Assembly: GCA_964395115.1 (NCBI GenBank)
Contig: CAYMZX010000003.1
Span: 14,111-78,110, forward strand
Source of the DNA: an uncultured Gammaproteobacteria bacterium
GTDB taxonomy: Bacteria; Patescibacteriota; Microgenomatia; UBA8517
DNA: 64,000 nucleotides
Direction: 5' to 3'
Part shown: positions 31,958 to 54,398 of the stretch, one piece after another
Numbering within the stretch: the first letter of the stretch is position 1
Layout: every line of letters begins with the position of its first letter
Notes under the pieces: generated by a model
The model's database searches: none
Seen by the model: only the letters and a program-made list of their open reading frames with translations
What the model was told of the DNA's origin: nothing
Made by a program: the position numbers and the translations under genes

Positions 31958-33000
31958 AATATTAATCCTCCCAGAAGAACGGCAACCCCGACCATTGTAT
32001 ACATCTTGGTCGAAGCATTCAAATTAAGGGCCAAAATTCCCAGAAATGCAGAGATAAACCAATAAAATATGGCCACCCGTCTTTTGCCCCAGCCAATATC
32101 CAAAAGCCGATGATGTAAATGGCCGCGGTCGCCCCAGACGGGCGATTTTCCTGATAAAATTCGTCGCACAATAGTATATCCAGTGTCAATTAAAGGAACT
32201 CCTAAGACTACCATCAAGGTTCCCACCTTAGTCGTTGAAAGAATAGCCAAGACTGCTAATAAGTATCCAGCCAAAGTCGAACCTCCATATCCGGGCATAA
32301 TTTTTTGAGGATAAAAATTCCAAGGCAGGAATCCCAAGTAGGCACCGGCGGTTATAGAAGCCAGGATAATAACCGGCCATTGAGTGATGTCGGCCGAAAA
32401 TTTTAAAGAAAGAGCGGCGATAGTAACGGCCGAAACTACCACCACTCCCGGAAGTTGACCATCAACCCCCTTTGCACCCATATTAAGCATATTCATAATA
32501 AAAACTATCCAAATCAAGGCGAAGAGATCTGAGATTATCCAAATACTTCTTTGTTGTCCCCAAAAATTAAAACTTATCTGCGGCCGGGAAAGATCAATCA
32601 GGCCGTCGAAAGGGTTTGAAATATAGGCGATGCCGATTCCGGCGACGATAGGGATAGTGGCGGCGATAAATCCGGTCCCCAGTCTTAGATAAGGATTAAG
32701 GTCGTATTTATCGTCTAATATTCCGATGAGAGAAACAAAGGTTGCCCCGGCCAAAATTCCTACGACGTGCTTGTCTATTGGTAAGAAAACCAAAGAAATA
32801 ATACCGATGGCAAGAAAAGTAGCCAGTCCACCGGCCCGAGGGACGGGGTATGTATGAATAACTTTTGGATGTTTATGGACTTTGGGGTCGTCGATAATAT
32901 TAAATTTTCGAGCGAATCTAATGGCAAGGGGGGTAGTTAGATAAGCCAAAATCCCCGCCATTATACCCGGCAAAAGTGCCAATCTGATTATTTCCATCAA
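31930..33000 (-). CDS. Glycosyltransferase family 4 polyprenyl-phosphate N-acetylhexosamine-1-phosphate transferase (MraY/WecA/WbpL family)
   Basis: GILDDKYDL, FIMNMLNMGAKGVDGQ and a polytopic topology. Confidence 0.8.
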   Translation of the reverse strand: MMEIIRLALLPGIMAGILAYLTTPLAIRFARKFNIIDDPKVHKHPKVIHTYPVPRAGGLATFLAIGIISLVFLPIDKHVVGILAGATFVSLIGILDDKYDLNPYLRLGTGFIAATIPIVAGIGIAYISNPFDGLIDLSRPQISFNFWGQQRSIWIISDLFALIWIVFIMNMLNMGAKGVDGQLPGVVVVSAVTIAALSLKFSADITQWPVIILASITAGAYLGFLPWNFYPQKIMPGYGGSTLAGYLLAVLAILSTTKVGTLMVVLGVPLIDTGYTIVRRILSGKSPVWGDRGHLHHRLLDIGWGKRRVAIFYWFISAFLGILALNLNASTKMYTMVGVAVLLGGLILWLTYRPKY

Positions 33001-33001
33001 T

Positions 33002-33343
33002 TTAAAAACTGCCCACCAAAAAGATTATTTTAAGGGTGGTAATATAGGCAAAAAAGGTTCCCGCCACGCCCCCAAAAATAATTATTTTTTTAAGGAAATC
33101 CTCCTGTATTTTTAAGGCAATTAATGAATTAATTAAGATAATCACTAACGATGCCAGGGCGGGAATCACCAGAAAAAAACTTTTTACAAGTTGGTCCTCC
33201 CCTTCGGCCAATCCATAAAAAAGGGGGACTACCGGAGGAAGAAATTTTTGACTGAGGAGAACGATTCCGGCAAGAACAGCATTTAGAATTACACAAACGA
33301 CAATAAGTCTTCGAAACGGCAGGTCGGCGAGCCCCAATTTCAT
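33002..33343 (-). CDS. Small 3-4 TM membrane protein of unknown function
   Basis: 113 aa, hydrophobic, tightly packed in the glycosylation operon. Confidence 0.5.
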   Translation of the reverse strand: MKLGLADLPFRRLIVVCVILNAVLAGIVLLSQKFLPPVVPLFYGLAEGEDQLVKSFFLVIPALASLVIILINSLIALKIQEDFLKKIIIFGGVAGTFFAYITTLKIIFLVGSF

Positions 33344-33387
33344 AAGAGACTAGCTTCAATTTTACTCGAAGGAAGAGAAAGGAGCAA

Positions 33388-34893
33388 TTAAATTGCCTTG
33401 ACGCTTCCCTTCAGCCGCCAAACTTCTGCCTCGTTAATATTGAAGATAAGCATATAAGATTTTTTTAGAAAAGACAAAAGTTGAGGAAATCCTCCAGCTT
33501 CAGGAAGGATAATGATGAATTTTGGAGGGTTATTCTCAAGAATTCTGACTTCTTTTTCTTTGGAAGAAAAATCGTTAATATGATAATCGGCGACAAATTT
33601 TCCCGGCGGAAGTCTTCTGGATAGAGCATAAACGGCAGAGGAATCGGGCCCCCAAACAAAGATTTTTTCCGAAGGATTAGTTGAGCTCGCAAGAAAACGA
33701 GCAATTTCATAATGGGTCGGAACTTGGCGGCCAAAACTGGCAAGGTACTCCTCTCGAGAGCTTTTGCCGACGGCAAATTTGATAAATCTTGAATAGTAGC
33801 CCGAAGTTGAATAATACCAAAACTTGAAATAAAAGGAAGCGAAAAAGACCAAAACAATGGGCAAGATGACCAACGATTGTTCTAGCGATTTTTCCGCGAA
33901 CAAAATCGCAAAGAGAAAAGAAAGTGGAGCGGCAATCTGAAGTAGATAATGAGGATAAGGGCGTTCGGAGAGAGTAGCGGCAAAAAGCCCGAAAAAGGTC
34001 CAAACAGTCAAAAATATGAATTTATTCGAAAGTTTCGACCTTTTTAAAAAAAGAATTGCCACTCCTACAGCCACGATACCCAATCGAATCAAAAGCGGCA
34101 GATTCCTAAGTGAGAATGGTTTGTTGATATCTTGGGGCCGCCAACTAGACAGATATCCGATATTTTGTAGGAAGGCTGCCCGAATATAATCGCCAAGATT
34201 GCCAGCCAAAAGAAACCAAGCAAGAGATATGCAAATTGGCACTAAAAAACCAGCCACCAAATAGAGTGATTTGGTGAACGTATCTTTCAAGGCTTCCTTT
34301 TTCAAGCCGGAGATGACGAGCCAGAAAACAATGATAACCAGCAAATCAAAGGCCGCTGGAATCTTAAATAGGGCGGCGATTCCGAAAAGAACACCGGCAA
34401 CAAAAATATCTTTTGAATAACCCTTTTTATCCATAAGAAGCAAGAAAGCGGCGACAATTGGGCCAATCATAAAGTTTTCAGCATTGGCAATGTTTCCTTC
34501 CAAAAGCGGAAGGGTCGTGAGAAGGGCAAAAATAACGACGGCAGTTTTTTGAACCTTAGTTTTGTTCGGGAAAAGTTTTTCAGATAGTTTCCAAAAAAGG
34601 ACTATGGTTGCCAGGCTCCAGAAAGCCAAGATTGTCTTAAACCAGAAAACGTTTCCAGCTAAAGCAGCCAGAAGATAAAGCAAAGGAGGCTTATTGTCAT
34701 AAATTCCTGAGTATAGAGGCAGTCCATGTTTTATTCCTTCTCCGACAGAGAGATAAATCATCTCGTCTCCGTAAGAAAAAGGTTCTAGAAAGGAGGGGAT
34801 TCTGAGGACTAAAACCAGGGCCAAAACGAGAATTATCCAACTAGGCAGATGAAGTTTATCTAGAAAGTTTTTCATTGAGCTCGTTCCATCCAA
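33388..34893 (-). CDS. GT-C fold glycosyltransferase (ArnT/PMT-like, GT39/GT83 type)
   Basis: N-terminal FSYGDEMIYLSVGEGIKHGLPLY carries the DE motif after TM1, and the protein is polytopic. Confidence 0.75.
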   Translation of the reverse strand: MDGTSSMKNFLDKLHLPSWIILVLALVLVLRIPSFLEPFSYGDEMIYLSVGEGIKHGLPLYSGIYDNKPPLLYLLAALAGNVFWFKTILAFWSLATIVLFWKLSEKLFPNKTKVQKTAVVIFALLTTLPLLEGNIANAENFMIGPIVAAFLLLMDKKGYSKDIFVAGVLFGIAALFKIPAAFDLLVIIVFWLVISGLKKEALKDTFTKSLYLVAGFLVPICISLAWFLLAGNLGDYIRAAFLQNIGYLSSWRPQDINKPFSLRNLPLLIRLGIVAVGVAILFLKRSKLSNKFIFLTVWTFFGLFAATLSERPYPHYLLQIAAPLSFLFAILFAEKSLEQSLVILPIVLVFFASFYFKFWYYSTSGYYSRFIKFAVGKSSREEYLASFGRQVPTHYEIARFLASSTNPSEKIFVWGPDSSAVYALSRRLPPGKFVADYHINDFSSKEKEVRILENNPPKFIIILPEAGGFPQLLSFLKKSYMLIFNINEAEVWRLKGSVKAI

Positions 34894-36137
34894 ATAATTT
34901 TAAGGGAATCAAATATCTTTTCTTCTTTCTTAGTATATCCGGGTATTTGAATCTCCTCAATAGGGCCACTGGTAATAACTCCAAGGCGGTTAATTTTCTT
35001 GGGAAGAGTTTCTATGACATCATCGGGTCCCATAAGGGCGGTTCCGACATAGAAAGGAAGTTTGTCCCTTCCTTGGGGGACGTATAAGGGCGCCGGTATC
35101 CCGTAGTATTTCGCCTCCCAAAGATGGTGGGCGGCCGAGTTCCAGTTTATTAAAAAATCATCTCCTCGTTTCACCTCCTTTACATACGAAGAAAATTCTC
35201 GAAATGGTCGTTTTGTCGGGCGAGTAAAATAAATAAAATCTACCAAAATAAAAATGGCCAGAATAATGACCAAGATAATGTTAGAAATTTTTCTTCTCTG
35301 GCTCGCTGCCAAAAGCATAGCTGGCGGAATTGTGTAAATTAGATATCTATCATAAAAAAGGGGGGTAAATTTCTGGGATATTCCCCATGACAAGAAAACT
35401 GGTAATGTAGCCCAGAGGAATAGAGGTAATGATTTCCTGAAATTTAGACGCCAATTTCGTAAAGGAAGAAGAAACAGGCTTGCATTAAGATATTTGAAAA
35501 ACAAAAGAGCCAAATCTTTAAACGTCGGTTTTCCCAGCCAAAAACCGCTTTCAACAAGTTTTGTTTGTTTATACAGGGGTATCAACCAAGGGGAATAAAG
35601 AATTCCGACGACCAGAAAAACCTTAAGCATGGTCATTGCCAATTTTCTGTTACCCCCAAACAACTCTCCTAAAAAAAGAAGGGCCTGAACCAAAAGGGCG
35701 AAGAAACAGAAATGCTGAGTATAAAGAGCCATGGTCGTAGTCAAAATATAAAAGCCCCACCTTCTTCTTAGGAAGAAATAAAACGAAGCGGTAACGGTTG
35801 CCACCAGAAGAGAATACATTCTTCCCTCAAAACCATAGGTAAACAAAAAAGGATTAAAAAAAGTAAGAAGGGCGGCAAGTATGGCGGTTTTTTTATCCCA
35901 AAAATACCCCCCTATTTTATAGGTAAAATAAACCGCCCCTAAAAGAAATAAAAAAGCCAAAATCCTAATAGAGACCTCGCTGGCGCCGAAAAGTCTAAAC
36001 CAAAGACTTTCCAGAATATTAAACAAAGGCGGATGCGGCTCATTGGTGGAAATTTTGATTATCTCGGGAATTCCCTTCAAAGAAAGAATAGCGGAGAACG
36101 CCTCGTCCCCCCAAAGGCTGGCAGTAAATTGATTCAC
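34872..36137 (-). CDS. GT-C fold glycosyltransferase (ArnT/PMT-like), paralogous to the neighbouring gene
   Basis: WGDEAFSAILS is a DE motif, with a polytopic membrane topology. Confidence 0.7.
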   Translation of the reverse strand: MNQFTASLWGDEAFSAILSLKGIPEIIKISTNEPHPPLFNILESLWFRLFGASEVSIRILAFLFLLGAVYFTYKIGGYFWDKKTAILAALLTFFNPFLFTYGFEGRMYSLLVATVTASFYFFLRRRWGFYILTTTMALYTQHFCFFALLVQALLFLGELFGGNRKLAMTMLKVFLVVGILYSPWLIPLYKQTKLVESGFWLGKPTFKDLALLFFKYLNASLFLLPLRNWRLNFRKSLPLFLWATLPVFLSWGISQKFTPLFYDRYLIYTIPPAMLLAASQRRKISNIILVIILAIFILVDFIYFTRPTKRPFREFSSYVKEVKRGDDFLINWNSAAHHLWEAKYYGIPAPLYVPQGRDKLPFYVGTALMGPDDVIETLPKKINRLGVITSGPIEEIQIPGYTKKEEKIFDSLKIIWMERAQ

Positions 36138-36144
36138 GTTTTCA

Positions 36145-37635
36145 CTATACCTTTTCGGTTACCCGATATTCAATATATTTCCCTAGCATAAGGCGGGTAT
36201 GGGCGTCGAGACCGGGGAGGGCGGTGAAAAAAAAGCCGGCGATTGGCATAAGAATAAATTCAAATGGGGCAACGAGGGCCTTCCAAAGAGGAACCTCCTT
36301 TGGCCTTTTTGGTTTATAGAAATTATTGATAATTATCATTATTACTAAGAAGCCGAGTGCTACAGTCAACACATAAGAAGAAAGTCGGGGGACGGTATAG
36401 CCGAGGGTAGTTTTGGCAAAAGCGGGGTTTAAAATTGAGGGGATAGTTAATCCTAGCGTGATAATAAACCAATTGACGGGCCACATAAAATGAGCCCAGA
36501 GAGCGTATATTAATCGCATGGTCTTGTCCCAAAAGGGGACCCCGGGCGTTAAAAAGTAATTTTTTATTATCCAGGGGTCATCCGAAACGCCCCAGGCCCA
36601 CCTTTTGTATTGTTCGTATTGATTTTTTAATGTTTTCAGTAAAGAGGTCGATTGAGGCGCATCCGCATGTAGTGGTAGATAAATGGGTTCAACTTCGACC
36701 CCTCCCCGTTTTTTGTAATAGGCCTTAAAGAAGATTCCCCAATCTTCCGGAATTTTATCTGGGTCCCAGTAATCAACCTCATCAAGGAGTTTAAAAGAAA
36801 GAGAGTAGTTTTGCTGGTTGATGAGCCGGTCTTTTCTCGACAATTGGGAAAGATTCCAGATCGAAGAGATTGTGTTGGGAACTCGCGTAATGGCCGGCAA
36901 TTCCCAGATATTGTTGTAAAACATCACTGCCGGTTGCCAGAAATATCGGTAACGATTTGGATTATCAAGGAATTTAAAAGTCAGACATGAGAAGTGTTTG
37001 GGATGATACACGTGGTCGGCATCACAAGAGGTGATAGTTAAATAATTTATATCGTACAATAGTTCGTCTATAAGTTTTTTCTTAGCCCAAATACCAGCAT
37101 AGCGTTCATTAGAAGCCTTTCCTACAACCTCGCCGGGCCCCAGCCTATGGACAGTTACAAAGAAATGGCCGAAGGTTTTACCGAATTTTTTGGTGAGAGC
37201 CAGCGCTTTCCCAAGTCTTTGTTCTTTTTCCTCCTTCTCTTCCATTGCCAGAATTACAATTAGCTGTTTTTTGGGAAAATCCTGCCTGGCTAATGAGGTA
37301 AGTGTTCTTTCCAGGATATAAAGAGGTTCTTTATAGGTGGGGACAATAATTATGTGGTGGACCTTTTTCCAGTCAGAAAATGGTTTGAGATCCCCAAGCC
37401 AATCATAACTCAAAGAAGCCTGAATTTTTAAATGGGAGATAAAGGCGGCGAGAGCTATTTGAAGAGACTGGTAAAACCAATAGATATTAAAAGCAAGAAC
37501 GAAATAAGCAACTACATTAGGAATTATAAAAATTCCCCAATAAGGAAAAAGAATAGCGTTCCAAGAAAAAAGACCGGGGAGAATTTCTAAGAAACGGTGG
37601 ATGAGTTTATCATGCTTTACGAAAAGGTTCCTCAT
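36145..37635 (-). CDS. Membrane GT2 glycosyltransferase of the processive (cellulose/chitin-synthase-like) type
   Basis: IIIVPTYKEP, DAD and QYKRWAWG (the QxxRW motif), with N- and C-terminal TM helices. Confidence 0.8.
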   Translation of the reverse strand: MRNLFVKHDKLIHRFLEILPGLFSWNAILFPYWGIFIIPNVVAYFVLAFNIYWFYQSLQIALAAFISHLKIQASLSYDWLGDLKPFSDWKKVHHIIIVPTYKEPLYILERTLTSLARQDFPKKQLIVILAMEEKEEKEQRLGKALALTKKFGKTFGHFFVTVHRLGPGEVVGKASNERYAGIWAKKKLIDELLYDINYLTITSCDADHVYHPKHFSCLTFKFLDNPNRYRYFWQPAVMFYNNIWELPAITRVPNTISSIWNLSQLSRKDRLINQQNYSLSFKLLDEVDYWDPDKIPEDWGIFFKAYYKKRGGVEVEPIYLPLHADAPQSTSLLKTLKNQYEQYKRWAWGVSDDPWIIKNYFLTPGVPFWDKTMRLIYALWAHFMWPVNWFIITLGLTIPSILNPAFAKTTLGYTVPRLSSYVLTVALGFLVIMIIINNFYKPKRPKEVPLWKALVAPFEFILMPIAGFFFTALPGLDAHTRLMLGKYIEYRVTEKV

Positions 37636-44670: not shown

Positions 44671-44671
44671 T

Positions 44672-45717: not shown

Positions 45718-47586
45718 TCAATCGCGGATGTATTTTTTGAGGATATGATCAAAACTTAAAAAATCAGGGTTGCCCACATCATTTTTTGTTGAACTCGAGA
45801 TTTTTTCCTCGAGCAATTCTTCCGGGATATCGAGAATAAACCTTGAAGGAGGATTGGAAATTTTTTCGCCGAAGTAAAGACGCCTAGTCGCATAAGATAA
45901 ATATAAAAGCTCTTTGGCGCGAGTCATACCTACATAAGCCAGACGCCTTTCTTCTTCCAACTCGTTGATATCAAAAAGACTGCGAGAGTGGGGAAAAATC
46001 CCTTCTTCCATTCCGACAATAATAACAACCGGAAATTCTAGCCCCTTGGCGGCATGGAGAGTCATCAAAGTCATCCGACCGTGATCGTTGTGCCCGGGCT
46101 TTTCCGGCTGACTGGCGCCTTCCTCGATTAACGCCACCTTTTCTAGAAAGTCATAAATGTTGGGAAATTCGGTGGCTACCGAGCGAAGCTCTTTTATATT
46201 TTCCAATCTGGCTAAATTTCCTTCGGTTTTCTTTTTGTATAAAGAAAGATAGTCCGTTTTTTGGAGAACTTTGTCCAAGAAGTCAAGGGTTGATAAAGAC
46301 TTATCTTTGAATTCTCTTTTAAATTCCATAAATTTTTCATAACGCTTTTTGCCCATTTTTTTGATTCTTCTATAAGAAACTGAATCGTGGCTATTCACCA
46401 AACCCCTAAGAAAAGAAAGAACATCCTTTATCTCTTTGCGCTCGTAAAATCTTGTGCCGCCAACCAGAACATAGGGGATTCCGGAACGAAGTAGGGCCTC
46501 TTCCAAGACGCGAGATTGGGCATTGGTTCGATACAACACTGCGATATCTTTGAAGCAATAACGGCTTAGGACAAGTGAAGAAATCTCATTGACCACAAAT
46601 AAGGCTTCGTCTGAACCGTTTTTGGCGCGGTAAAGTTTTATTCTTTCTCCGGGAAGATTCCGCGTCCAAAGTTTCAGGATTGGATGGGATTTATTTTTGG
46701 AGATAACTGAATTGGCAGCGGAGAGAATGTTTTGGGTTGAACGATAATTCTGTTCCAGATTTATCACCTTTATTCCAGGAAAATCCCTCATTAAATAGGT
46801 AATATTTTTAAAGTCGGCGCCTCGCCAACTATAAATTGATTGAGAAGCGTCTCCAACAGCGGTGATATTTTTGTCCTTATCGGCCAGAAGCCTAGTTAAA
46901 ACATATTGAATTTTATTTGTGTCTTGCCACTCGTCGATGAAAATGTGAGTTAGTCTGTTTTGCCAGTTAACTAGGACTTTAGGACTCTCTTTTAAAAGTT
47001 TTACTGCTTGGAGAAGTAAATCGTCAAAATCCAAGGCCCCTGCCTTTTTTAAAGCCCTTTCATATTCAGTATAAATTTTTAGGAATAACTTTTGTGAATC
47101 GTTTGTTGCGAGATCGGCATACTGACTGGCAGAAAGCATCTGGTTTTTGGTTTCGGATATTTGGGCAACGAAAGAAGCGGGACTGGATGACTTTGAAAGG
47201 TCTAATCCATTGAGGATTTGTTTAATCACCTCTTTTTGATCTTCCTCGTCGTAGATTAAAAAGTCAGGATAAATCCCTATTTCTCGGCCATCAATTCTTA
47301 AAATTTTTGCGCAGAATGAGTGGAATGTTCCAGAAAAAGGAGGCGGAAATTTAGTCAGTCGGGCAATTCTTTCTTTCATTTCGTCGGCAGCCTTGTTAGT
47401 GAAAGTAAGAAGGAGAGCGTTTTGAGGTTGGAGTTTATTTTTGGCGATAAAATAGGCGACGCGGTAGGTGAGAACTTTAGTTTTCCCGCTGCCCGCCCCG
47501 GCCAGAATTAGTAAGGGTCCTCCATCGTAGGTCACTGCCCTTTTTTGCTGTTCATTTAGACCGCAAAGAAGATTATGGAGAGCCAT
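45718..47586 (-). CDS. pcrA: UvrD/PcrA-type DNA helicase (short, 622 aa)
   Basis: LNEQQKRAVTYDGGPLLILAGAGSGKTKVLTYRVAY, a DEWQDT motif II and the remaining SF1 motifs. Confidence 0.85.
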   Translation of the reverse strand: MALHNLLCGLNEQQKRAVTYDGGPLLILAGAGSGKTKVLTYRVAYFIAKNKLQPQNALLLTFTNKAADEMKERIARLTKFPPPFSGTFHSFCAKILRIDGREIGIYPDFLIYDEEDQKEVIKQILNGLDLSKSSSPASFVAQISETKNQMLSASQYADLATNDSQKLFLKIYTEYERALKKAGALDFDDLLLQAVKLLKESPKVLVNWQNRLTHIFIDEWQDTNKIQYVLTRLLADKDKNITAVGDASQSIYSWRGADFKNITYLMRDFPGIKVINLEQNYRSTQNILSAANSVISKNKSHPILKLWTRNLPGERIKLYRAKNGSDEALFVVNEISSLVLSRYCFKDIAVLYRTNAQSRVLEEALLRSGIPYVLVGGTRFYERKEIKDVLSFLRGLVNSHDSVSYRRIKKMGKKRYEKFMEFKREFKDKSLSTLDFLDKVLQKTDYLSLYKKKTEGNLARLENIKELRSVATEFPNIYDFLEKVALIEEGASQPEKPGHNDHGRMTLMTLHAAKGLEFPVVIIVGMEEGIFPHSRSLFDINELEEERRLAYVGMTRAKELLYLSYATRRLYFGEKISNPPSRFILDIPEELLEEKISSSTKNDVGNPDFLSFDHILKKYIRD

Positions 47587-48696
47587 GTTAAAATTGATTC
47601 TAACATGGAGGAGTTGGTAGTAGAAAAGGAACCTGCCCCAAAAAAGAAGTCAAAGTTTTTTCAAAAAACGAAACGTCGTCTTTTAAGACACCTCTGGTTG
47701 GTAAGAATCGGAATTTTGATTTTAGTTTTCTTGGCGGGATATTTTCTCTTTAGTCTTTTAGGATCTTTATTTGCCAGGACAGGATTAGAAAACTATTTAA
47801 AAACCCTAAGCAACTTTATTTGGGACTCTCCTGCTAAAATTGAGACGGCAGAGGGTAGAACGAATATCCTGATTCTGGGTAAGGCCGGGGAGGGATACGG
47901 GGCCAAGGATTTAACCGATACCATAATTTTTGCCTCCATTTCTTATCCAAAATCAAAACTTTCCCTTATCTCTTTGCCTCGAGACATCTGGATTCCGGCC
48001 ATCCGAGCAAAAGTCAACAGCGCTTATTATTGGGGAAACCAGCGAAAAGAAAAAGGAGGGCTTATTCTGGCGAAATCAACCATAGAGGAAATCGTTGGCC
48101 AGCCAATCCACTACGCGGTCGTCATAGATTTTTCAGGATTTACCAAAATAGTTGATGTTATTGGAGGTATTGAGGTTAACGTGGAACGGGAATTTATCGA
48201 CGAAAAATATCCGGTTTCCGGCAAAGAAAACGATTTATGTGACGGAGATCCACTATTGGGTTGTCGCTATCAAACGGTAAAATTTGAAAAAGGTTTACAA
48301 ACAATGGATGGAGAAACCGCCCTCAAATTTGTAAGATCCCGAAATGCCGAGGGGGAGGAAGGTAGCGATCTGGCTAGGGCCAGCCGCCAGCAAAAAGTAA
48401 TTCTGGCTATCAAGCAAAAAATATTAAGCCGGAGCGTTCTTTTTTCCCCAAAGAGAATTTCGGCAATTTTGAAGGTGATCCGAGAATCAGTAGAAACGGA
48501 CATTGAAAGTCAAACAGGAGCGGTTCTAGCCAGATGGATTTTAGAGGCAAAAGATGATGTTTTCACTCATGTTTTAGCGGAGGACTTGCTTATTCATCCC
48601 CCAGTATCCCCCCGTTATGATAATCAATATGTTTTTATTCCCAAGGCTGGAGACTGGAGCAATATCCACCAATGGGTTTCTCAAAGGCTTCCCTAA
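47575..48696 (+). CDS. LytR-CpsA-Psr (LCP) family cell-wall polymer phosphotransferase
   Basis: N-terminal TM, then NILILGKAGEGYGAKDLTDTIIFASISYPKSKLSLISLPRDIW. Confidence 0.85.
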   Translation: MESHVKIDSNMEELVVEKEPAPKKKSKFFQKTKRRLLRHLWLVRIGILILVFLAGYFLFSLLGSLFARTGLENYLKTLSNFIWDSPAKIETAEGRTNILILGKAGEGYGAKDLTDTIIFASISYPKSKLSLISLPRDIWIPAIRAKVNSAYYWGNQRKEKGGLILAKSTIEEIVGQPIHYAVVIDFSGFTKIVDVIGGIEVNVEREFIDEKYPVSGKENDLCDGDPLLGCRYQTVKFEKGLQTMDGETALKFVRSRNAEGEEGSDLARASRQQKVILAIKQKILSRSVLFSPKRISAILKVIRESVETDIESQTGAVLARWILEAKDDVFTHVLAEDLLIHPPVSPRYDNQYVFIPKAGDWSNIHQWVSQRLP

Positions 48697-51092
48697 ATGG
48701 AAAAATGAAAATTCGACGTTACGACAAATATCTATTGCTTCTTTTAGTATTCAGCTTTTTTTTGCGGCTTTCTTTGTATAAAACCGGAACGTTCTGGCTC
48801 GATATAAACAGTTTCATTGCTTGGAGCAATACTTTGATCAAAACCGGTTTCGGCAATTTTTACAACAGTGTCTGGTCTGATTATTTGCCGGGATATCTTT
48901 ATATCTTGTGGCTCTTGGGCAAGATTAAAAATTTGGTTGGCTTTGACCAGCTTTTTCTATTTAAACTCCCGTCAATTTTTTCCGATTTAGCCACTGCCTA
49001 TCTCATTTATTTGATTGCGAAAAAAATTAAAGGCCCAAAAATAGGGTTGATTGCTTCGGCTTTCTACGCTTTGAATCCTGCAATAATATTTAATTCCACC
49101 CTTTGGGGACAGGCAGATTCACTGACCGCCCTTTTTTGTCTTTTGTCAATTTATCTTTTTGGAATAAACCACTTATTATCGTCGCTGGCGCTTTCTCTTG
49201 GGACCGCTTTTAAGCTTCAAGCTGCCTTAGCCGCTCCCATTATCTTGATGATGATGCTTAAGCATCGTTGGAGACCAAAAAAAATTGTAAGTTACATTCT
49301 CTTTTCGGTTGCAGTTTTTTTGTTAATTTTCTTGCCCTTCAATCTTCCGGATAAAAATCCGCCCCTTTTTATCTATGAGAGAATAAGAGTGACGCTGAAT
49401 CAATATCCATACGGTAGCGTCAATGCATTTAATTTTTGGGGCCTTTGGGGTTTTTGGAAACCAGATGGCGGAGGAATCACCCCCCTTAAAATTATAGGAA
49501 TCGGCCTTTTCGGTCTAATTTCAGGTTTAGCCATCGCTAGGTTTTGGCGGGAAAAACGAAGCGAATATTTGCTGGCGGCTATTTTGACGGCAGCTAATTT
49601 CCTCTTCTTTACCAGGATGCACGAGAGACACCTGTTACCCGTTTTTGCTCCATTGGCGGTTTCCGCGATAATCAATCCGGCTCTCTGGGTGTCCTATTTT
49701 GGATTCTCGTCAACCTATGTTTTGAATCTATATTTTGCTTTCGAACAGCAAGCCGTTGTTAAATCGGGAGTTTTTACTCTTCCGACAATCAAGGCGCTAA
49801 TCCTAGCTAATTTTGTTTTTTTTAGCCTCCTTTTTAACAAAACTAGCAAAATTCGCCTTTTCTATTTTTGGCCTAAAAAAAAGGATTTTTTTGAAAAGAT
49901 AAAGCCGAGAAAGAAAAACATTAGAATTTTTCTTGGCACCATTATTCTGTTCGCTTTAATAACAAGGGTTTTCTCATTAGGCTTTCCTCTTAAAGAATAC
50001 TTTGACGAAGTTTATCATGCCTTTACCGCCAGACAGATACTCCACGGAAACCCAATGGCTTGGGAGTGGTGGAATACACCGCCCGAAGGATTTGCTTATG
50101 AGTGGACCCACCCCCCTTTGGCCAAACTTGGTATGGTCGCCGGGATGTTAATTTTCGGAGAAAACCCGTTTGGCTGGAGAATACCAGGGGCTCTTCTAGG
50201 AACCGGGAGCGTTCTTTTGGTTTATCTTATCGCCAGCAAGATTTTTAAAGACGGACTCTCGGGAATTTTGGCCGCCGGAGTTTTTAGTCTTGATGGTCTA
50301 CCTTTGGTCATGTCTAGAATCGGGATGAATGACAGCTATCTATTATTTTTTGTTCTTGCCAGCGTTTATCTTTATTTGGCCGACAAATATTTTTGTTCTG
50401 CTTTGGCGTTTGGGTTGGCGCTCTCATCAAAATGGTCGGCGGCTTGGGCGATTCCTATATTTTTGGTCGCAACCTTAGTTTTTAGGAAAAAAATTCAATT
50501 AAGCCACCTTTGGTTCTTGTTATTGCCGCCACTGATTTATTTGGCAAGCTACCTCCCGATGTTTTTGACGAATCATGATTTTTCAACCTTTTGGGGAATG
50601 CAGAAACAAATGTGGTGGTATCACACCAAACTTAAAGCAACCCACGCTTATACTTCGCCCTGGTGGAGCTGGCCGCTCTTGGCTCGGCCTATTTACCTTT
50701 ATACTTCCAACGAAGCGGGCGGGGTTGTTTCCAGAATTTATGCCATGGGCAACCCTTTTGTTTTCTTGTCCGGAATAATTGCCGTTGTCCTGGCATCTTT
50801 TTTGGTGATAACTGGAAGAATTAAAAGGCTGATCTTTGTGGTTTTTGCGTATCTGATTCTGTTTGTCGGTTGGGCCGCCTCACCCCGAATAATGTTTTTG
50901 TACCACTACTTGCCTTCTCTTCCCTTTATGGCGATCGCGACCGGATATGTTTTGCGTCGTTTTCCCAAAGTTATTCTCCCTTTTTTCATTACTTCGGCTC
51001 TGCTGTTTGTCTATTTTTATCCACACTGGATTGGCTTGAGAATTCCTCTTTGGCTAGACAAAAGCTATTATTGGTTCGCTTCCTGGAGATGA
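48672..51092 (+). CDS. 806-aa two-module GT-C membrane glycosyltransferase (N-terminal DUF2029/mannosyltransferase-like module + C-terminal PMT/ArnT-like module)
   Basis: More than 20 TM helices. The second module starts with FDEVYHAFTARQILHG, a GT39/83 DE motif. It overlaps the LCP gene by 25 bp. Confidence 0.7.
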   Translation: MGFSKASLNGKMKIRRYDKYLLLLLVFSFFLRLSLYKTGTFWLDINSFIAWSNTLIKTGFGNFYNSVWSDYLPGYLYILWLLGKIKNLVGFDQLFLFKLPSIFSDLATAYLIYLIAKKIKGPKIGLIASAFYALNPAIIFNSTLWGQADSLTALFCLLSIYLFGINHLLSSLALSLGTAFKLQAALAAPIILMMMLKHRWRPKKIVSYILFSVAVFLLIFLPFNLPDKNPPLFIYERIRVTLNQYPYGSVNAFNFWGLWGFWKPDGGGITPLKIIGIGLFGLISGLAIARFWREKRSEYLLAAILTAANFLFFTRMHERHLLPVFAPLAVSAIINPALWVSYFGFSSTYVLNLYFAFEQQAVVKSGVFTLPTIKALILANFVFFSLLFNKTSKIRLFYFWPKKKDFFEKIKPRKKNIRIFLGTIILFALITRVFSLGFPLKEYFDEVYHAFTARQILHGNPMAWEWWNTPPEGFAYEWTHPPLAKLGMVAGMLIFGENPFGWRIPGALLGTGSVLLVYLIASKIFKDGLSGILAAGVFSLDGLPLVMSRIGMNDSYLLFFVLASVYLYLADKYFCSALAFGLALSSKWSAAWAIPIFLVATLVFRKKIQLSHLWFLLLPPLIYLASYLPMFLTNHDFSTFWGMQKQMWWYHTKLKATHAYTSPWWSWPLLARPIYLYTSNEAGGVVSRIYAMGNPFVFLSGIIAVVLASFLVITGRIKRLIFVVFAYLILFVGWAASPRIMFLYHYLPSLPFMAIATGYVLRRFPKVILPFFITSALLFVYFYPHWIGLRIPLWLDKSYYWFASWR

Positions 51093-51100
51093 ACTTCTTT

Positions 51101-51544
51101 TTATATTGCTAAAAGCAGAGATATCAAAAGTAGAAAAACTCCCATTCCCAACCAGATAATAGTCGGCCAGGAAATTCCTGCTTCAGGAAGCGATGGCTCC
51201 GCAGTTGGGCTTGCCTGCGCCAATGGACTAGGCGACGGAGAAACGGTCGGCGAAGGCGAAGGTGAAGGTGAAGCGGCGGGACTAGGACTAGGCGACGGAG
51301 AAACGGTCGGTGAAGGTGAAGCGGTTGGACTAGGAGAAGGCGAAACTTGCGTAATAGTAAAGGTAAGTTCCGTGCAAGATTGCGGGGGAGCTGCCTGGGG
51401 TTTACTGGTCGGCGCGGTAGGAGCGACCGGCTGCTGCCTTAACTGGTAAAGCCTATAGGCGGTAAAGACAGCAATTCCCGCCAAAACCAGGGTGGCTAGA
51501 AGGATGAGAACGGTTGCTATTTTGCTTTTAAAAAATGTTTTCAT
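51101..51544 (-). CDS. Ser/Pro-repeat surface protein with an N-terminal signal anchor and a C-terminal LPEAG + hydrophobic segment
   Basis: 147 aa. (SPSPSP/TVSP)n repeats. The C-terminus is SLPEAGISWPTIIWLGMGVFLLLISLLLAI. Confidence 0.55.
   Translation of the reverse strand: MKTFFKSKIATVLILLATLVLAGIAVFTAYRLYQLRQQPVAPTAPTSKPQAAPPQSCTELTFTITQVSPSPSPTASPSPTVSPSPSPSPAASPSPSPSPTVSPSPSPLAQASPTAEPSLPEAGISWPTIIWLGMGVFLLLISLLLAI
51225..51336. repeat. Imperfect ~60-bp tandem direct repeat (2 copies, the second with a 12-bp deletion) encoding the SPSPSP...TVSP stalk
   Basis: ggactaggcgacggagaaacggtcgg recurs at 51225 and 51285. A related GC-rich motif occurs at 52855-52925 in the next surface-protein gene. 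Confidence 0.5.
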
Positions 51545-51564
51545 TTTTGTTATTAATACTCCTT

Positions 51565-52725
51565 TTATTCAGACCAGCCTAAAGTCGTATGATGTATTTG
51601 AGCGCCAATTGTAAAAGTTGTTATGCCAGGCGGGATAGTATATTCATCATAAAACTCTTCCGACCCGGGTTTCTTCTGGGTTACTTCAGGTCGCTGGACG
51701 CCATTAATTTTGAATCTGGCTCTGTCAAATGAGCCCGAAGTGGTTGTACCCGCAACCGCAAAACGAATCGTATCTCCCGGCTTAAGACTTGAGAGTTGAC
51801 TAGAAGATAGTATATTCCAGCTTAAATCGTAGGCCTTTACATTGAGACATTGAGCGGTAGGACTAGCCCCCGGCGGAGGTGCTGTGGGGGCAGGAGAAGA
51901 TGTGGTGGTCACAGTTGTGCCAGCGCACTGGAAGCACCAATTTGGATTAGTTCCACTGCCTCGATTTTCCCAGTTGCAATTTCCTTCCCTAGCTGCAACA
52001 TTTCGATACCCACAATGAGCAATACAGGCCTCTTCCGCGGTATCCCTATTAATACCTCCAGAAATCCAACCGGGCCTACAAGTTTGTACTTGTGGAGTAG
52101 TGGTTGGGGTAGTAGTGGGCGAAGGCTCTTTAGTAGGTCCTTTCGCGGGAGACGGCTCTTTAGTAGGAACGGGAGTGGGTGTCTTAGTCGTCGGACAAGC
52201 TGCACGGCACTCGGTAGGAGTATTCCCCTTTGCTAGACATCCCTCATAACAAGGAAGACAGCAACCAATATTCTGACCGGCAGGCGAGACACAGCCTCCA
52301 GTAGAAGTTCCCATAAAAATATTTCCTGCCTGGTTGCAGGCTGAAAGGGTGCTGCATGTTCCAGAGTACCCACTGACTTTACAATCTTGGCCCGGGCCGG
52401 CCGCTTTTTCTCTTATATCTTGTTGTTGCTTAATAAGAATTACTCCCGCTCCGAGGCCGCCGACCAAAATCAGAAGTCCCAAAATAGTGGCGATTACTTT
52501 TCCGCCGCCGAATTTTTTCTTGGGAGAAATCGGAGTGACAACCGGGGGAAAATCAAAATTTGGAGCGGCCCCTTCTCCTGACATGGCGTCGGCTGGGATC
52601 GTGGAGTTTGTTTCCGGTGGAGGGGGAATGTTATCTGCGGGCAATGGAGGTATTTCGGCAACAACCGTAGGTTCCGCCGCCGGCTGATTTTGAGAGGAGC
52701 TGTTTGGATTATTCGGGCTCGGCAT
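51565..52725 (-). CDS. Type-II-oriented membrane protein with a Pro-rich N-tail and a Cys-rich (24 Cys) ectodomain
   Basis: 386 aa. TM at VIATILGLLILVGGLGAGVILI. Many CxxC/CC pairs and PT-rich linkers. No family recognised. Confidence 0.55.
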   Translation of the reverse strand: MPSPNNPNSSSQNQPAAEPTVVAEIPPLPADNIPPPPETNSTIPADAMSGEGAAPNFDFPPVVTPISPKKKFGGGKVIATILGLLILVGGLGAGVILIKQQQDIREKAAGPGQDCKVSGYSGTCSTLSACNQAGNIFMGTSTGGCVSPAGQNIGCCLPCYEGCLAKGNTPTECRAACPTTKTPTPVPTKEPSPAKGPTKEPSPTTTPTTTPQVQTCRPGWISGGINRDTAEEACIAHCGYRNVAAREGNCNWENRGSGTNPNWCFQCAGTTVTTTSSPAPTAPPPGASPTAQCLNVKAYDLSWNILSSSQLSSLKPGDTIRFAVAGTTTSGSFDRARFKINGVQRPEVTQKKPGSEEFYDEYTIPPGITTFTIGAQIHHTTLGWSE

Positions 52726-52731
52726 TTAGAT

Positions 52732-54078
52732 TTAAATTTCCGTCTTTCTCCAAATTAAAAGACTAACCAAAATTATTCCTACTCCCAGAATAGAGAAAAG
52801 GACTGTGGGAGTCAAGTTGCCAGAATCGTAGACTCCGGAAGAGGTTGACGGGATTGGCGAAATTCTGGGGGTGATGGTTGGAATGGGCGAAACCGTCGGC
52901 GATGGCGACGGCGAGGGGGAAGGTCTGGGAGTAGATGTTGGTGATGCCGAAGGGGTTGCTTCAAAAGAAGGACCTTCCGAAGCTTGGACAATGAAAGTCC
53001 TTCGCAGGGTTCTTAGGATTCCCGAAGCGTCTCTCCAAGAAATAGTTATTGTATGGGTCCCTTCCGCAAGGTTGGAGGGAGGGCTCCATTTCCATTGGCC
53101 GGATGAAGGAATTTTTAATGTTTCGGAAACCGGTTCTGACTCCACGGTGATGGTAATGGTTACTCCTGAAGGTCCTTTGCCAAAAAACTCCGGATCGGTA
53201 GTGGTTATGACTTCCCCTTCCTTAATACTTTCCAAAGTAACGTTTTTGGCCGACGGCGTAGCTGTTTTCTCTTCCACTTTAAAACCGGAAGAAGGAGTCT
53301 TTTCTTCGGGAAGACCGATTGAGGCGCTAGGAATTTGTCCCTTTCCAGCCGGCGGGAGATTTTTGAAATCATGAACTTGGCCAAGAATGATGGATGGAGC
53401 TGGTTTGGCCGATTGAGGATAAATTTGGGCCGAGGCAACATTTCCCAACCCGGCATTGACGGAAATTTCTATCAACGAATTTTTTTCGTCAATCTGGATA
53501 TAATCCTGCAAATCGGCGGTTCTGGCTGAAGATATAGGGGCAACCCAGTTGCCGGTTGCGGAAGTAATGGTTGAAAGAAGACTGCTTCCGCCAATCGTCA
53601 AATAAACCAAAGCATTCTTGGCCGGTTCGCCGGTTGCCGTCAAAATTATTCCAGAAATTAAGACAGTTTTGTTAGGAGTCGCCAGGGCCGAACCGGTTGT
53701 TATTTGCCAGGGAACGCCGTTATTATCGAAATCCTCTCCCCCGGAATTTATTTTAAAAAAATAGGTAGTTTGGGGAGACAGGCCCCTTAGAGTCAGAGTG
53801 TGGGTATGGCTTTGTGTGGCAAGTTCGTCTAATTCGGTTCGCGATAGGGAATTTTGATTTTCCCCCCACCTGACAAACCCGGATGTTTCTCTGTCGGTTA
53901 CCCAAGAAATGGTCAAAGAGGTATCGGTAATATTGGAAATGCGGACATCTTTGGGGGCGAACTCGCCGGTCGCGCCGAGGCGGAAAAAGAGTCGGCTTCT
54001 TATTAACATAACGCCGGCCGCTATCCCAATTACTAAAATTAGAATTCCAAGTAAAGTGGGGATTTTGCTTTTTTTCAT
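52732..54078 (-). CDS. Surface protein with an N-terminal signal anchor, FN3-like domain(s), a PS/PT-rich stalk and a C-terminal TM + basic tail
   Basis: The FN3-like block is VRISNITDTSLTISWVTDRETSGFVRWGENQ...LRGLSPQTTYFFKI. The C-terminus is LFSILGVGIILVSLLIWRKTEI. Confidence 0.55.
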   Translation of the reverse strand: MKKSKIPTLLGILILVIGIAAGVMLIRSRLFFRLGATGEFAPKDVRISNITDTSLTISWVTDRETSGFVRWGENQNSLSRTELDELATQSHTHTLTLRGLSPQTTYFFKINSGGEDFDNNGVPWQITTGSALATPNKTVLISGIILTATGEPAKNALVYLTIGGSSLLSTITSATGNWVAPISSARTADLQDYIQIDEKNSLIEISVNAGLGNVASAQIYPQSAKPAPSIILGQVHDFKNLPPAGKGQIPSASIGLPEEKTPSSGFKVEEKTATPSAKNVTLESIKEGEVITTTDPEFFGKGPSGVTITITVESEPVSETLKIPSSGQWKWSPPSNLAEGTHTITISWRDASGILRTLRRTFIVQASEGPSFEATPSASPTSTPRPSPSPSPSPTVSPIPTITPRISPIPSTSSGVYDSGNLTPTVLFSILGVGIILVSLLIWRKTEI

Positions 54079-54398
54079 GGCGTCGGGGTTGCCGATTCGG
54101 TGGCTACAGGTGTTGGAGTGGTTGTTGGCGACGGTCTAGGGGTTAGAAAAATAAAGGGACTGCTTGTAGGAACAGAAAAGTTACCAATCTCTTCTTCGGA
54201 AAAGAAAAGTCTACCCTCGATGCTATCTAACGACTCGGCATCCAATACTGGATTGAGTGGCTCAATGATGTCGGGCGGGACATTGGGCGATGGTTCATTT
54301 GTAAAAACTCGGTAGACGGTAAATATAGTCCAAAAGACAACCGTTATCATTGTCAAAAAAGCGATTGTAACGAGACTTGGTGTTTTTGAATTTTTCAT
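54075..54398 (-). CDS. Small membrane protein with a Pro/Thr-rich C-terminus (PilP-position protein?)
   Basis: 107 aa, N-terminal TM, positioned immediately after pilO. Confidence 0.45.
   Translation of the reverse strand: MKNSKTPSLVTIAFLTMITVVFWTIFTVYRVFTNEPSPNVPPDIIEPLNPVLDAESLDSIEGRLFFSEEEIGNFSVPTSSPFIFLTPRPSPTTTPTPVATESATPTP

Follow-up and report, generated by a model that had tools for sequence, protein, structure and literature searches.

The large protein encoded directly downstream of a LytR-CpsA-Psr (LCP) gene in an uncultured Woesebacteria-type bacterium is a fusion of two GT-C glycosyltransferase modules. The explanation preferred here, with about an even chance of being correct (roughly 0.5), is that the C-terminal PMT module of this 795-aa protein starts, and its N-terminal module (N module) extends, an O-glycan on Ser/Thr/Pro-rich envelope proteins. 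The features discussed are collected in Table 1, where positions are those of the window, i.e. the whole 64-kb stretch of DNA that was analysed.

Table 1. Positions of the features in the window
Feature	Position	Strand	Remarks
Separate glyco-cluster	31007..37635	-	UbiA, GT4, two ORFs without family, PMT_2 GT-C, GT2
LCP (LytR-CpsA-Psr) gene	47575..48696	+	373-aa ORF; alternative start 47605
Junction of LCP and GT-C genes	48672..48705	+	ATG 48672 (longest ORF) and ATG 48705 (homologue-supported)
Two-module GT-C glycosyltransferase gene	48705..51092	+	795 aa (ATG 48705) or 806 aa (48672)
N-terminal GT-C module, aa 1-381	48705..49847	+	Similar to ALG6, ALG3, PIG-M, PimE
D33-x6-W40, first outside loop of N module	48801..48824	+	Aligns with ALG6 GDFEAQRHW
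H306-E307-R308-H309 motif, N module	49620..49631	+	Aligns with ALG6 HEK
Inter-module linker, aa 382-402	49848..49910	+	Lys/Arg-rich, predicted cytoplasmic, low model confidence
C-terminal GT39/PMT-like module, aa 403-795	49911..51089	+	MIR-less; Pfam, Foldseek and profile
DE motif F433-D434-E435, first outside loop of PMT module	50001..50009	+	Aligns with fungal FDEV
Four convergent genes (147, 386, 448, 107 aa)	51101..54398	-	Membrane-anchored/secreted, Ser/Thr/Pro-rich tracts; conserved synteny

Gene structure and the two GT-C modules

The assignment of the upstream gene to the LCP family, made in the original prediction, was confirmed by matches of its 373-aa ORF to Pfam LytR_cpsA_psr (4.2e-32) and TIGR00350 (96.5 bits, cut-off 62.3). 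In this protein the LCP domain (aa 114-284) comes after an N-terminal membrane anchor, and its nearest solved relatives are TagV, MsrR, Cps2A and TagT. The 25-bp overlap described earlier is true of the longest GT-C ORF (48672..51092, plus strand, 806 aa, corresponding to the existing call P0285), which shares positions 48672-48696 with the LCP ORF, and arises only with that start. An identical protein in a public gene call (P0001) has 795 aa and begins at ATG 48705, the equivalent Met is the start in homologues, and from this codon the gap to the LCP stop is 8 nt; the JGI call, in which the LCP product starts at 47605 and has 363 aa, likewise leaves 8 nt between the two genes. Whether overlapping by 25 bp or spaced by 8 nt, the LCP and GT-C genes are tightly coupled, and they would be co-transcribed, or nearly so.

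The possibility that the large protein consists of unrelated ORFs fused by an assembly artefact was rejected, as 1116 homologues were found and relatives are present in 324 species-level genomes; the best 120 of the 1116 are almost all 730-830 aa long with a query coverage of 93-100%, one exception among them being a 686-aa match with a coverage of 54%. Clostridia also carry the fusion of N and PMT modules, there with extra domains. The AlphaFold2 model (mean pLDDT 85.4) displays about 25 long hydrophobic helices, in agreement with the more than 20 transmembrane helices expected, and the expected pair of GT-C modules was borne out by family and fold assignments. Both modules have a common GT-C core and are distantly related to each other (hhalign E 2.8e-9, 137 columns). 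Since the N-terminus and the inter-module linker are rich in Lys and Arg, the positive-inside rule would place D33 as well as D434/E435 outside the membrane.

By sequence and fold, the C-terminal module belongs to the GT39/PMT family and lacks a MIR domain. It matches Pfam PMT (1.6e-11) and PMT_4TMC (1.2e-15), both above the cut-offs; Foldseek ranked Pmt4 and Pmt1-Pmt2 highest (E 3e-12 to 1e-7), and its profile retrieved CtPmt4 (9.4e-15) and ScPmt1 (9.9e-11) among PDB sequences. The motif FDEVYHAFTARQILHG, on which a GT39-type second half had been proposed, is indeed found from nt 50001 on, and its residues F433-D434-E435 (numbering of the 795-aa protein) are invariant in 58 homologues and match FDEV of fungal PMTs. 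Equally invariant in these 58 homologues are R492, corresponding to R138 of Pmt1, and the motif residues of SKW and R..FL.HYLP, with SKW aligning with SSKW and PRIMFLYHYLP with RQMFLHHYLP. The curated actinobacterial Pmt model gives 62.9 bits against a cut-off of 800, and therefore the acceptor specificity could differ.

The first half, originally likened to DUF2029/mannosyltransferase-type modules, is a GT-C module as well (AF2 mean pLDDT 91), but in the window protein it falls below the Pfam GT87 threshold, its closest likeness being to ALG6, ALG3 and PIG-M. A broad profile of the N family matches ALG6 almost end to end (7.7e-11), and the similarity to GPI mannosyltransferase 1 (PIG-M) is about 1e-11 at profile level. 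In the alignment with ALG6, K170-P-Q172 corresponds to FKQ and H306-E-R308 to HEK. Across 73 diverse family members (27-45% identity), no variation is seen at D33, W40, Q136 and R308, and conservation is at least 90% at K170, H306 and E307. D33 is the putative catalytic base, and H306-E307-R308-H309 a putative lipid-phosphate binding site.

PIG-U is a GT-C-fold scaffold of the GPI transamidase, and the N module might be non-catalytic in a similar manner, replacing the second protomer of a PMT dimer and aiding the binding of lipid donor or acceptor, with one sugar only being transferred. The GT-C core of both modules and the dimeric state of fungal PMT structures (PMC12757957; PDB entry titles) would be consistent with such a role; however, the ALG6-aligned Asp, Lys and His-Glu-Arg are invariant or nearly so in a very large family. 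Most of its members stand alone, with about 400 aa, and some belong to Gtr-like systems, which argues for catalysis and makes the scaffold improbable. The N module is probably an independent and active GT-C.

Pairing of the modules and the LCP neighbourhood

Both modules also occur as separate neighbouring genes in the same order, with 42-44% identity (L090/L091 and L092/L093). The N and PMT modules form a functional unit, because they are found as split adjacent genes in relatives with or without an LCP gene nearby. The context of L092 is unrelated and LCP is absent from it; indeed, no LCP gene was found in the available flanks of the N+PMT unit in L085, L087 and L092. In L090, which has three N-type paralogues, an LCP gene leads a run of five GT-C genes that overlap or lie close together, the PMT gene being the last, and in the window, too, LCP heads a same-strand gene string.

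These gene strings bear on the original prediction that the double GT-C protein builds an LCP-anchored wall glycopolymer, which was not established. According to this explanation, the GT-C modules and the other GT-Cs of the locus would extend or decorate an arabinogalactan- or teichoic-like glycopolymer linked to polyprenyl diphosphate, and LCP would ligate the polymer to peptidoglycan. The tight junction with the LCP gene and the five-gene string of L090 speak for it, as does the presence of a same-strand LCP gene at most 6 kb upstream of the GT-C gene in 63 of 66 species loci. The distance in Woesebacteria is usually 1-4 kb (median 2.5 kb), and the gap in relatives holds a variable GT-C island (PMT_2, PIG-V-like, DUF2298, TMEM260-like and YfhO), a further point in its favour together with the FemAB genes and MurJ that flank the block. 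The extra GT-C genes and the three paralogues of L090 suggest a glycan longer than a disaccharide, which a polymer would fit too. On the other hand, LCP is directly adjacent to the GT-C gene in only 2 of the 63 LCP-bearing loci, and its synteny is not specific, as the unrelated UvrD gene is just as tightly linked (66/66 loci). LCP is part of the same envelope-assembly neighbourhood, but the N+PMT unit would not require it. Furthermore, the C module has kept the PMT-specific motifs, and the characterised GT39 enzymes all glycosylate proteins (PMC12757957, PMC6151902).

The glyco-cluster at 31-38 kb had been invoked as a partner in polymer synthesis. In mycobacteria, arabinogalactan assembly involves WecA, GT2 galactan synthases, UbiA/DPPR synthase, GT-C arabinosyltransferases and the ligase Lcp1. 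Ingredients of this kind are present in the window, namely LCP, several GT-Cs, a UbiA resembling DPPR synthase (decaprenyl-phosphate phosphoribosyltransferase; 199 bits, cut-off 234), a WecA-like GT4 and GT2, and here as well LCP and GT-C genes share one gene string. A link to the GT-C gene was not found, however: these ingredients are divided between two clusters that are more than 10 kb apart and not linked, tblastn placed no gene of the 31-38 kb cluster within 8 kb of the GT-C gene in 80 relatives, and no epimerase or phosphatase gene of the DPA pathway was identified. The wall glycopolymer is the less likely product of the double GT-C protein, but it is still a serious rival to protein O-glycosylation.

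Candidate acceptors and comparison with known systems

For protein O-glycosylation, the four Ser/Thr/Pro-rich proteins encoded just downstream are candidate acceptors, we infer. Their 30-aa windows reach 70-87% Ser/Thr/Pro, as compared with at most 43% in housekeeping proteins, and the 448-aa protein is encoded downstream of the GT-C gene in 62 of 62 related loci. PilO-like and PilN genes come after the four genes. These lie on the strand opposite to the GT-C gene, and their linkage to it cannot be distinguished from the synteny that holds for the block as a whole.

In the 147-aa protein a Ser/Pro-rich tract is followed by LPEAG, an LPxxG-like C-terminal signal, and a hydrophobic tail. Such a protein could receive a lipid-linked glycan built by the GT-Cs if LCP acted as a glycan-to-protein transferase like LcpA of Actinomyces oris, which mediates glycosylation of a wall-anchored protein (PMC6381275). 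This is very improbable: no gene for a sortase was identified in the vicinity, enzymes of the PMT type glycosylate proteins without the help of an LCP, and the N+PMT pair is found without LCP.

A close parallel to the proposed two-step O-glycosylation is offered by actinobacteria (M. tuberculosis Rv1002c, S. coelicolor Pmt), in which O-mannose chains on proteins are started by PMT and lengthened by the GT87 enzyme PimE, with polyprenyl-P-mannose as the donor of both (PMC12757957). GT-C steps outside the membrane with a polyprenyl-phosphate-sugar donor would be common to both systems, as would Ser/Thr/Pro-rich targets (linkers there, candidates here); the MIR domain is absent in both, and the C module retains the DE motif, the lysine of SKW and, at the C-terminal end, R..FL.HYLP, as well as an equivalent of R138. 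In contrast, the host here is a member of the Patescibacteria, the modules are combined in a single protein (in relatives, they are encoded by neighbouring genes that overlap), the curated Pmt model is missed by a wide margin, and the N module is nearer to ALG6, ALG3 and PIG-M than to PimE. GT39 of the Firmicute Caldicellulosiruptor bescii (Cbes_1864) is an example from outside the actinobacteria. Glycosylation of secreted enzymes requires it, among them the cellulase CelA with its Thr/Pro linker, and the GT39 gene is close to that of this likely acceptor, comparable to the downstream candidates in the window. The C. bescii enzyme, of 556 aa, contains only one GT-C module, together with a CBM-like loop domain (PMC6151902).

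Resemblance of the N module to the ER enzymes ALG6/ALG8 (GT57), ALG3 (GT58) and PIG-M (GT50) extends to the catalytic Asp, FKQ and HE(K/R) motifs of ALG6; the eukaryotic enzymes, however, extend Dol-PP-oligosaccharide or GPI lipids, with an identity of 12-19%, and neither of these pathways was identified in the window. The best-known acceptors of ALG6, ALG3, PIG-M and PimE are lipid-linked, and in this respect these enzymes, structurally the closest to the N module, count against a protein-linked glycan.

The three-component Gtr systems of Gram-positive bacteria (GtrA flippase, GtrB GT2 and a GT-C, for example YfhO or PgtC2) follow the same logic, in that a GT-C outside the membrane uses a monosaccharide carried on a lipid phosphate. 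In streptococci, PgtC2 and GtrB add glucose to disordered regions of membrane proteins that are rich in Ser/Thr (PMC12041528). In L094 a standalone N-family gene adjoins BacA, a 234-aa GT2 and a GtrA-family gene, a layout like the classic three-component system that by analogy would favour a lipid-phosphate-sugar donor. The GT-C described here differs in being a PMT-type fusion, not of the YfhO/PgtC2 type, and no polyprenyl-phosphate-sugar synthase, GtrA-like flippase or GtrB gene was found in the 64-kb window.

The 795-aa protein is thus a natural fusion of two GT-Cs, which are proposed to depend on polyprenyl-phosphate sugars and to have their catalytic loops outside. Most likely, the C module would transfer the first hexose from polyprenyl-phosphate-hexose to Ser/Thr of exported envelope proteins, with the downstream-encoded proteins as the obvious candidates, and the N module would elongate the chain by adding the next sugar. 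The mycobacterial two-step scheme, initiation by PMT and extension by PimE, would then be placed in one polypeptide.

The double GT-C protein and its two modules

In the mechanical ORF list, the LCP gene and the double GT-C gene downstream of it have 25 bp in common (see the table), as in the original prediction. However, the identical database protein P0001 is called as 795 aa from ATG 48705, the codon equivalent to the methionine at which homologues of the large protein start, and the JGI call gives an LCP protein of 363 aa and an 8-nt gap to the glycosyltransferase gene; the 806-aa call is likewise present in other sources. The overlap is therefore one of two possible readings, the gap being the other, and under both sets of gene calls the two genes are tightly coupled. 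Promoter and terminator scans of 47000-51700 returned fewer sites than in shuffled sequence and are thus uninformative on operon structure.

Coordinates of the features discussed, in positions of the window
Feature	Coordinates	Strand	Description
Stretch with conjugation/type-IV-secretion-like genes, dnaN and dnaA	1154-10100		PrgI-like, TraG/VirB4-like P-loop ATPase
dnaN	7447-8556		beside conjugation-like genes
dnaA	8736-10100		beside conjugation-like genes
Wzy_C-domain gene	12223-13464	+	413 aa
UbiA-family gene	31007-33000	-	overlaps WecA-like GT4 gene
Tandem FemAB-family genes	43816-45688	-	two genes, upstream of UvrD
LCP ORF	47575-48696	+	373 aa, mechanical ORF list
DLTD segment of LCP	47900-47920		aa ~110-116
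Double GT-C ORF	48672-51092	+	806 aa, mechanical ORF list
Gene for 147-aa protein	51101-51544	-	Ser/Pro-rich tract
Gene for 357-aa protein	60890-61963	-	LexA-type domain and dehydrogenase domains

Database searching with the large protein retrieved 1116 relatives. Among the best 120 of these almost all were 730-830 aa long and covered 93-100% of the query at 52-71% identity, the exception being one 686-aa match with 54% cover; the named sources were Woesebacteria or Patescibacteria and the label was "glycosyltransferase family 39 protein". Of the species genomes scanned, one for each species, 324 contained a relative, and nearly all of the 80 kept were close to full length, a few being cut by contig ends. 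An assembly or frameshift artefact that fused two ORFs is rejected by the 120 best matches, almost all of them full-length, and by the 324 genomes with a relative, and is also countered by split versions of the protein in independent assemblies. The AlphaFold2 model of the whole protein had a mean pLDDT of 85.4 and a pTM of 0.70, versus a pTM of 0.92 for the N half modelled alone (mean pLDDT 91.2). Alignment of the two halves by hhalign gave a probability of 96% (E 2.8e-9), but a recent internal duplication was rejected, since they match over a core of 137 columns only, at 29% identity, and have different nearest structures. Both modules show the features of the GT-C superfamily: they cross the membrane many times, contain its conserved helical core and carry an acidic residue in their first outside loop. 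Both acidic loops are predicted to face the outside of the membrane because the N-terminus and the inter-module linker are rich in Lys/Arg (positive-inside rule).

The C module (aa 403-795; residues are numbered on the 795-aa form) matched Pfam PMT with 44.7 bits (cut-off 22.7) and PMT_4TMC with 58 bits (cut-off 32.4). The best Foldseek matches of the whole-protein AlphaFold2 model in the PDB were fungal Pmt4 and Pmt1-Pmt2 (E 3e-12 to 1e-7, target TM-score up to 0.67), and a profile of 58 homologues matched the PDB sequences of CtPmt4 (9.4e-15) and ScPmt1 (9.9e-11). The DE motif expected in the second half was confirmed as F433-D434-E435 in the first outside loop, which is invariant and pairs with FDEV of CtPmt4. 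Furthermore, in the profile alignments to ScPmt1 and CtPmt4, R492 pairs with Pmt1 R138, SKW with SSKW and PRIMFLYHYLP with RQMFLHHYLP, and R492, K576, R728, H734 and Y735 are invariant in the 58 homologues. The MIR domain, which eukaryotic PMTs carry in their large outside loop, is absent from the C module, where the loop of about 60 residues (aa 621-683) has two short strands; this fits the bacterial branch, since actinobacterial PMTs are described as proteins of about 550 aa and the Streptomyces coelicolor PMT is drawn with a different loop domain where yeast PMT1 has MIR (PMC12757957). The NCBIfam equivalog for actinobacterial Pmt, NF058602, was not reached (62.9 bits; cut-off 800). Judged by these profile scores, the large protein is a member of the GT39/PMT family and not an orthologue of actinobacterial Pmt; by family membership only, the C module would transfer mannose from polyprenyl-P-mannose to protein Ser/Thr.

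The N module (aa 1-381) belongs to a family for which there is no dedicated Pfam model. The N half of the window protein gave sub-threshold Pfam matches only, to PMT_2 (25.4 bits, cut-off 26.1) and Mannosyl_trans4, and did not reach the Pfam GT87 threshold. Among 16 orthologous N halves, the matches were to PMT_2 in nine, Mannosyl_trans4 in three, PIG-U in two and GT87 in one (5.2e-8), and a standalone paralogue in the related locus L082 matched GT87 with 29.1 bits (cut-off 25). An exhaustive profile search showed how large the family is: at E <= 1e-3 it has 7954 representatives, or about 8,000 clusters at 50% identity, and at E <= 1e-30 there are still 1174. The typical member is a standalone protein of some 400 aa, and IMG labels some of them "Gpi18-like mannosyltransferase". 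Against the PDB, a profile of 73 diverse members found GPI mannosyltransferase 1 (1.9e-11) and ALG6 (7.7e-11), the latter aligned over nearly its full length. In this alignment D33-x6-W40 pairs with GDFEAQRHW of ALG6, the aspartate of which is the catalytic base of ALG6, K170-P-Q172 with FKQ and H306-E307-R308 with HEK. Across the 73 members, at 27-45% identity, four residues never vary (D33, W40, Q136, R308) and three more show at least 90% conservation (K170, H306, E307). The N module thus has the profile and fold similarity and the aligned catalytic motifs of GT57 (ALG6/ALG8) and GT50 (PIG-M). From these conserved residues it looks catalytically competent; that it is instead a non-catalytic, PIG-U-like module is a minor alternative. 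The label GT-C_B was tried for this module and discarded, since PimE, ALG6, ArnT and PglB are all placed in subclass GT-C_A (PMC12041525). The first half had been described as DUF2029/mannosyltransferase-like; it may share a PimE-type fold, in which the catalytic Asp lies on the first juxtamembrane helix and Lys and His serve for the phosphate.

The LCP gene and the Woesebacteria neighbourhood

The product of the 373-aa ORF matched Pfam LytR_cpsA_psr (PF03816) along practically its full length (4.2e-32; profile positions 2-149 of 150) and TIGR00350 with 96.5 bits (cut-off 62.3), and its nearest solved structures in the PDB were TagV, MsrR, Cps2A and TagT, with values down to 7e-14. As read from its sequence, a Lys/Arg-rich N-terminus is followed by a single hydrophobic segment (about aa 38-66) and then by the domain, that is, by the membrane anchor and extracytoplasmic domain typical of the family. 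By these matches it is a bona fide LCP protein, as had been proposed, and its family makes it a predicted transferase of polyprenyl-PP-linked polymer to peptidoglycan; LcpA-like transfer of glycan to protein is a minor alternative. Of the conserved Arg and Asp residues with which LCP proteins bind the lipid pyrophosphate, the PRD, R-x-R and R..RQ positions are retained in alignment with TagV. The arginine of the TagV 'RSD' is replaced by leucine (DLTD), and the same substitution is found in the orthologue in the related locus L090 (1185-2291 of that locus).

The gene order is almost invariant in 80 species loci: FemAB(-), UvrD(-), LCP(+), a gap of 0-4.2 kb, double GT-C(+), Ser/Thr/Pro-rich proteins(-), PilO(-), PilN(-) and MurJ(+). 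In 63 of 66 loci an LCP gene precedes the double GT-C gene on the same strand, at a distance of no more than 6 kb; the two are directly adjacent in two of the 63, and the median gap is 2.5 kb. The expected synteny of LCP and GT-C genes is thus found, but UvrD is equally constant (66 of 66), as are the 448-aa downstream protein (62 of 62) and PilN (61 of 62), and the LCP link is therefore inseparable from the synteny of the whole block. The two tandem FemAB-family genes of the window lie within this conserved block with LCP and MurJ; FemAB proteins build peptidoglycan interpeptide bridges.

In most Woesebacteria (loci L001-L084) the interval between LCP and double GT-C holds a variable island with one to three extra GT-C genes; that of the window is without such an island. 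Recurrent island genes were PMT_2-like of about 390 aa (60), DUF2298 (19) and PIG-V-like (17), and rarer ones weak PMT_2 (7), PMT_2/PMT (4), TMEM260-like (3) and YfhO (1). In L082 and L090 the gap also holds standalone N-module paralogues, two or three in number. The island and these paralogues mark the locus as a hot spot of GT-C enzymes predicted to act outside the membrane.

Many of the contigs carrying the locus (L005, L009, L012 and others) are labelled, for example, 'uncultured Gammaproteobacteria bacterium'; because of their gene content and synteny, such labels appear to be placeholders or errors. Elsewhere in the window, dnaN and dnaA lie next to the conjugation-like genes, so that the region of the replication origin probably falls inside the window.

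Pairing of the modules and the wall-polymer model

Loci L090 and L091 have the same neighbourhood as the window (UvrD, LCP and surface proteins), with the two modules as separate genes in the same order, an N module of 399 aa (P0134) and a standalone PMT of 428 aa with 42% identity to the C half of the window protein; the two genes overlap by 22 nt. In L092 and L093, the context of which is unrelated to that of the window, a standalone N module with a Pfam GT87 match adjoins a standalone PMT (44% identity), and no LCP gene was found in the flanks of the pair. Fusions of N and PMT with extra domains occur in Clostridia (P0255, 1322 aa) and elsewhere. One of them is surrounded by chemotaxis and PTS genes, and neither an LCP gene nor a further glycosyltransferase gene lies close to it. 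This fusion/split relationship, observed alongside the architecture, homology and residue conservation of the double GT-C, points to the N and PMT modules as a functional unit. In L094 a standalone N-family gene is found with BacA, a 234-aa GT2 and a GtrA-family gene, which is the classic three-component arrangement for lipid-phosphate sugars; Pfam searches, and tblastn with the L094 genes, found neither a polyprenyl-P-sugar synthase nor GtrA in the window.

According to the original prediction, the GT-C modules and a gene cluster at 31-38 kb build a wall glycopolymer that is anchored by the LCP protein. In line with this, LCP is the first gene of the string both here and in L090, the double GT-C locus is rich in GT-C genes, and the window also has WecA-like GT4, PMT_2 GT-C, GT2 and DPPR-type UbiA genes. 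The nearest match of the UbiA-family gene is decaprenyl-phosphate phosphoribosyltransferase (199 bits, just short of the cut-off of 234), and the gene overlaps that for GT4; together these are a hint that a Patescibacteria genome may encode a donor of lipid-linked pentose. Arabinogalactan-like genes are thus present, but they are not linked to LCP and GT-C: WecA, UbiA/DPPR synthase and GT2 lie 10-17 kb away in the window, and tblastn found none of them within 8 kb of the double GT-C in 80 related loci. Since, furthermore, the C module retains PMT-specific motifs and the N+PMT unit occurs elsewhere independently of LCP, the wall-polymer model is considered the less likely reading, although it stays plausible, with an appreciable share of the probability.

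The 357-aa protein encoded near the end of the window is an unusual fusion, in which a LexA-type DNA-binding domain (aa 2-59) is joined to the NAD-binding and central domains of UDP-glucose/GDP-mannose dehydrogenases; the dehydrogenase C-terminal domain gave no match in it.

Proposed glycosylation of surface proteins and its implications

We infer the donor, acceptor and order of action of the double GT-C from precedent, the closest worked-out system to the N and PMT pair being actinobacterial protein O-mannosylation. There PMT (GT39) attaches the first mannose from polyprenyl-P-mannose, which also serves PimE (GT87) as donor when it lengthens the chain (PMC12757957). In a Firmicute, secreted enzymes depend on a GT39 for their glycosylation; one of them is the Thr/Pro-linker cellulase CelA, whose gene lies near that of the GT39 (PMC6151902). 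The Caldicellulosiruptor bescii GT39 was considered as a two-module enzyme, which would match the reported disaccharide, and was rejected as such, being a single module of 556 aa. In the window, the products of the four genes directly downstream are anchored or secreted, and Ser/Thr/Pro make up 70-87% of their richest 30-aa segments, the maximum in housekeeping proteins being 43%; tracts such as SPSPSPTASPSPTVSPSPSPSP and TPSASPTSTPRPSPSPSPSPTVSPIPTITP are similar to the linkers of actinobacteria that PMC12757957 quotes as heavily mannosylated. On these precedents and neighbours, the favoured reading is that the PMT module would initiate a glycan on Ser/Thr/Pro-rich proteins and that the N module would elongate it.

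The 147-aa protein encoded just downstream of the double GT-C combines an N-terminal membrane helix with a long tract rich in Ser/Pro, and its C-terminus, LPEAG and then a hydrophobic tail, looks like a sortase-type sorting signal. In the 413-aa protein a Wzy_C (O-antigen ligase) domain was matched (3.9e-11); this family also contains the PglL/TfpO O-oligosaccharyltransferases of pilin glycosylation, and the protein could represent a second protein-glycosylation route.

A wider proposal, against which we would put long odds, is an assembly line resembling that of the ER but sited on the outer side of the membrane, in which a PMT initiator and one or more ALG6/PIG-M-like elongators, fused or in an LCP-led operon, would place glycans on Ser/Thr-rich surface or pilus-associated proteins, LCP might tie the product to peptidoglycan, and the N family would be the prokaryotic sister of ALG6/ALG8 and PIG-M. 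If true, it would extend over Woesebacteria and related Patescibacteria, with one to several elongators making oligo- or polysaccharides.

To our knowledge, bacterial systems of the protein O-mannosylation type have been studied almost solely in Actinobacteria, and almost nothing is known of the envelope chemistry of uncultured Patescibacteria. A literature search found no paper on this fusion or on GT-C/PMT enzymes in the Candidate Phyla Radiation, and database labels for such proteins are GT39 or "Gpi18-like" only. The fusion and the split pair tie a PMT-type initiator to a second GT-C by evidence independent of gene neighbourhood, and therefore allow a prediction of which enzyme extends the glycan; the double GT-C would be a compact two-step system that could be expressed in a surrogate host. 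The N family also comes to light as a bacterial GT-C family that is very large and poorly annotated; its catalytic motifs, aligned with those of eukaryotic ALG6 and PIG-M, bear on how the glycosylation enzymes of the ER arose. The LCP link, if real, would suggest a wall-bound glycoconjugate in ultra-small bacteria.
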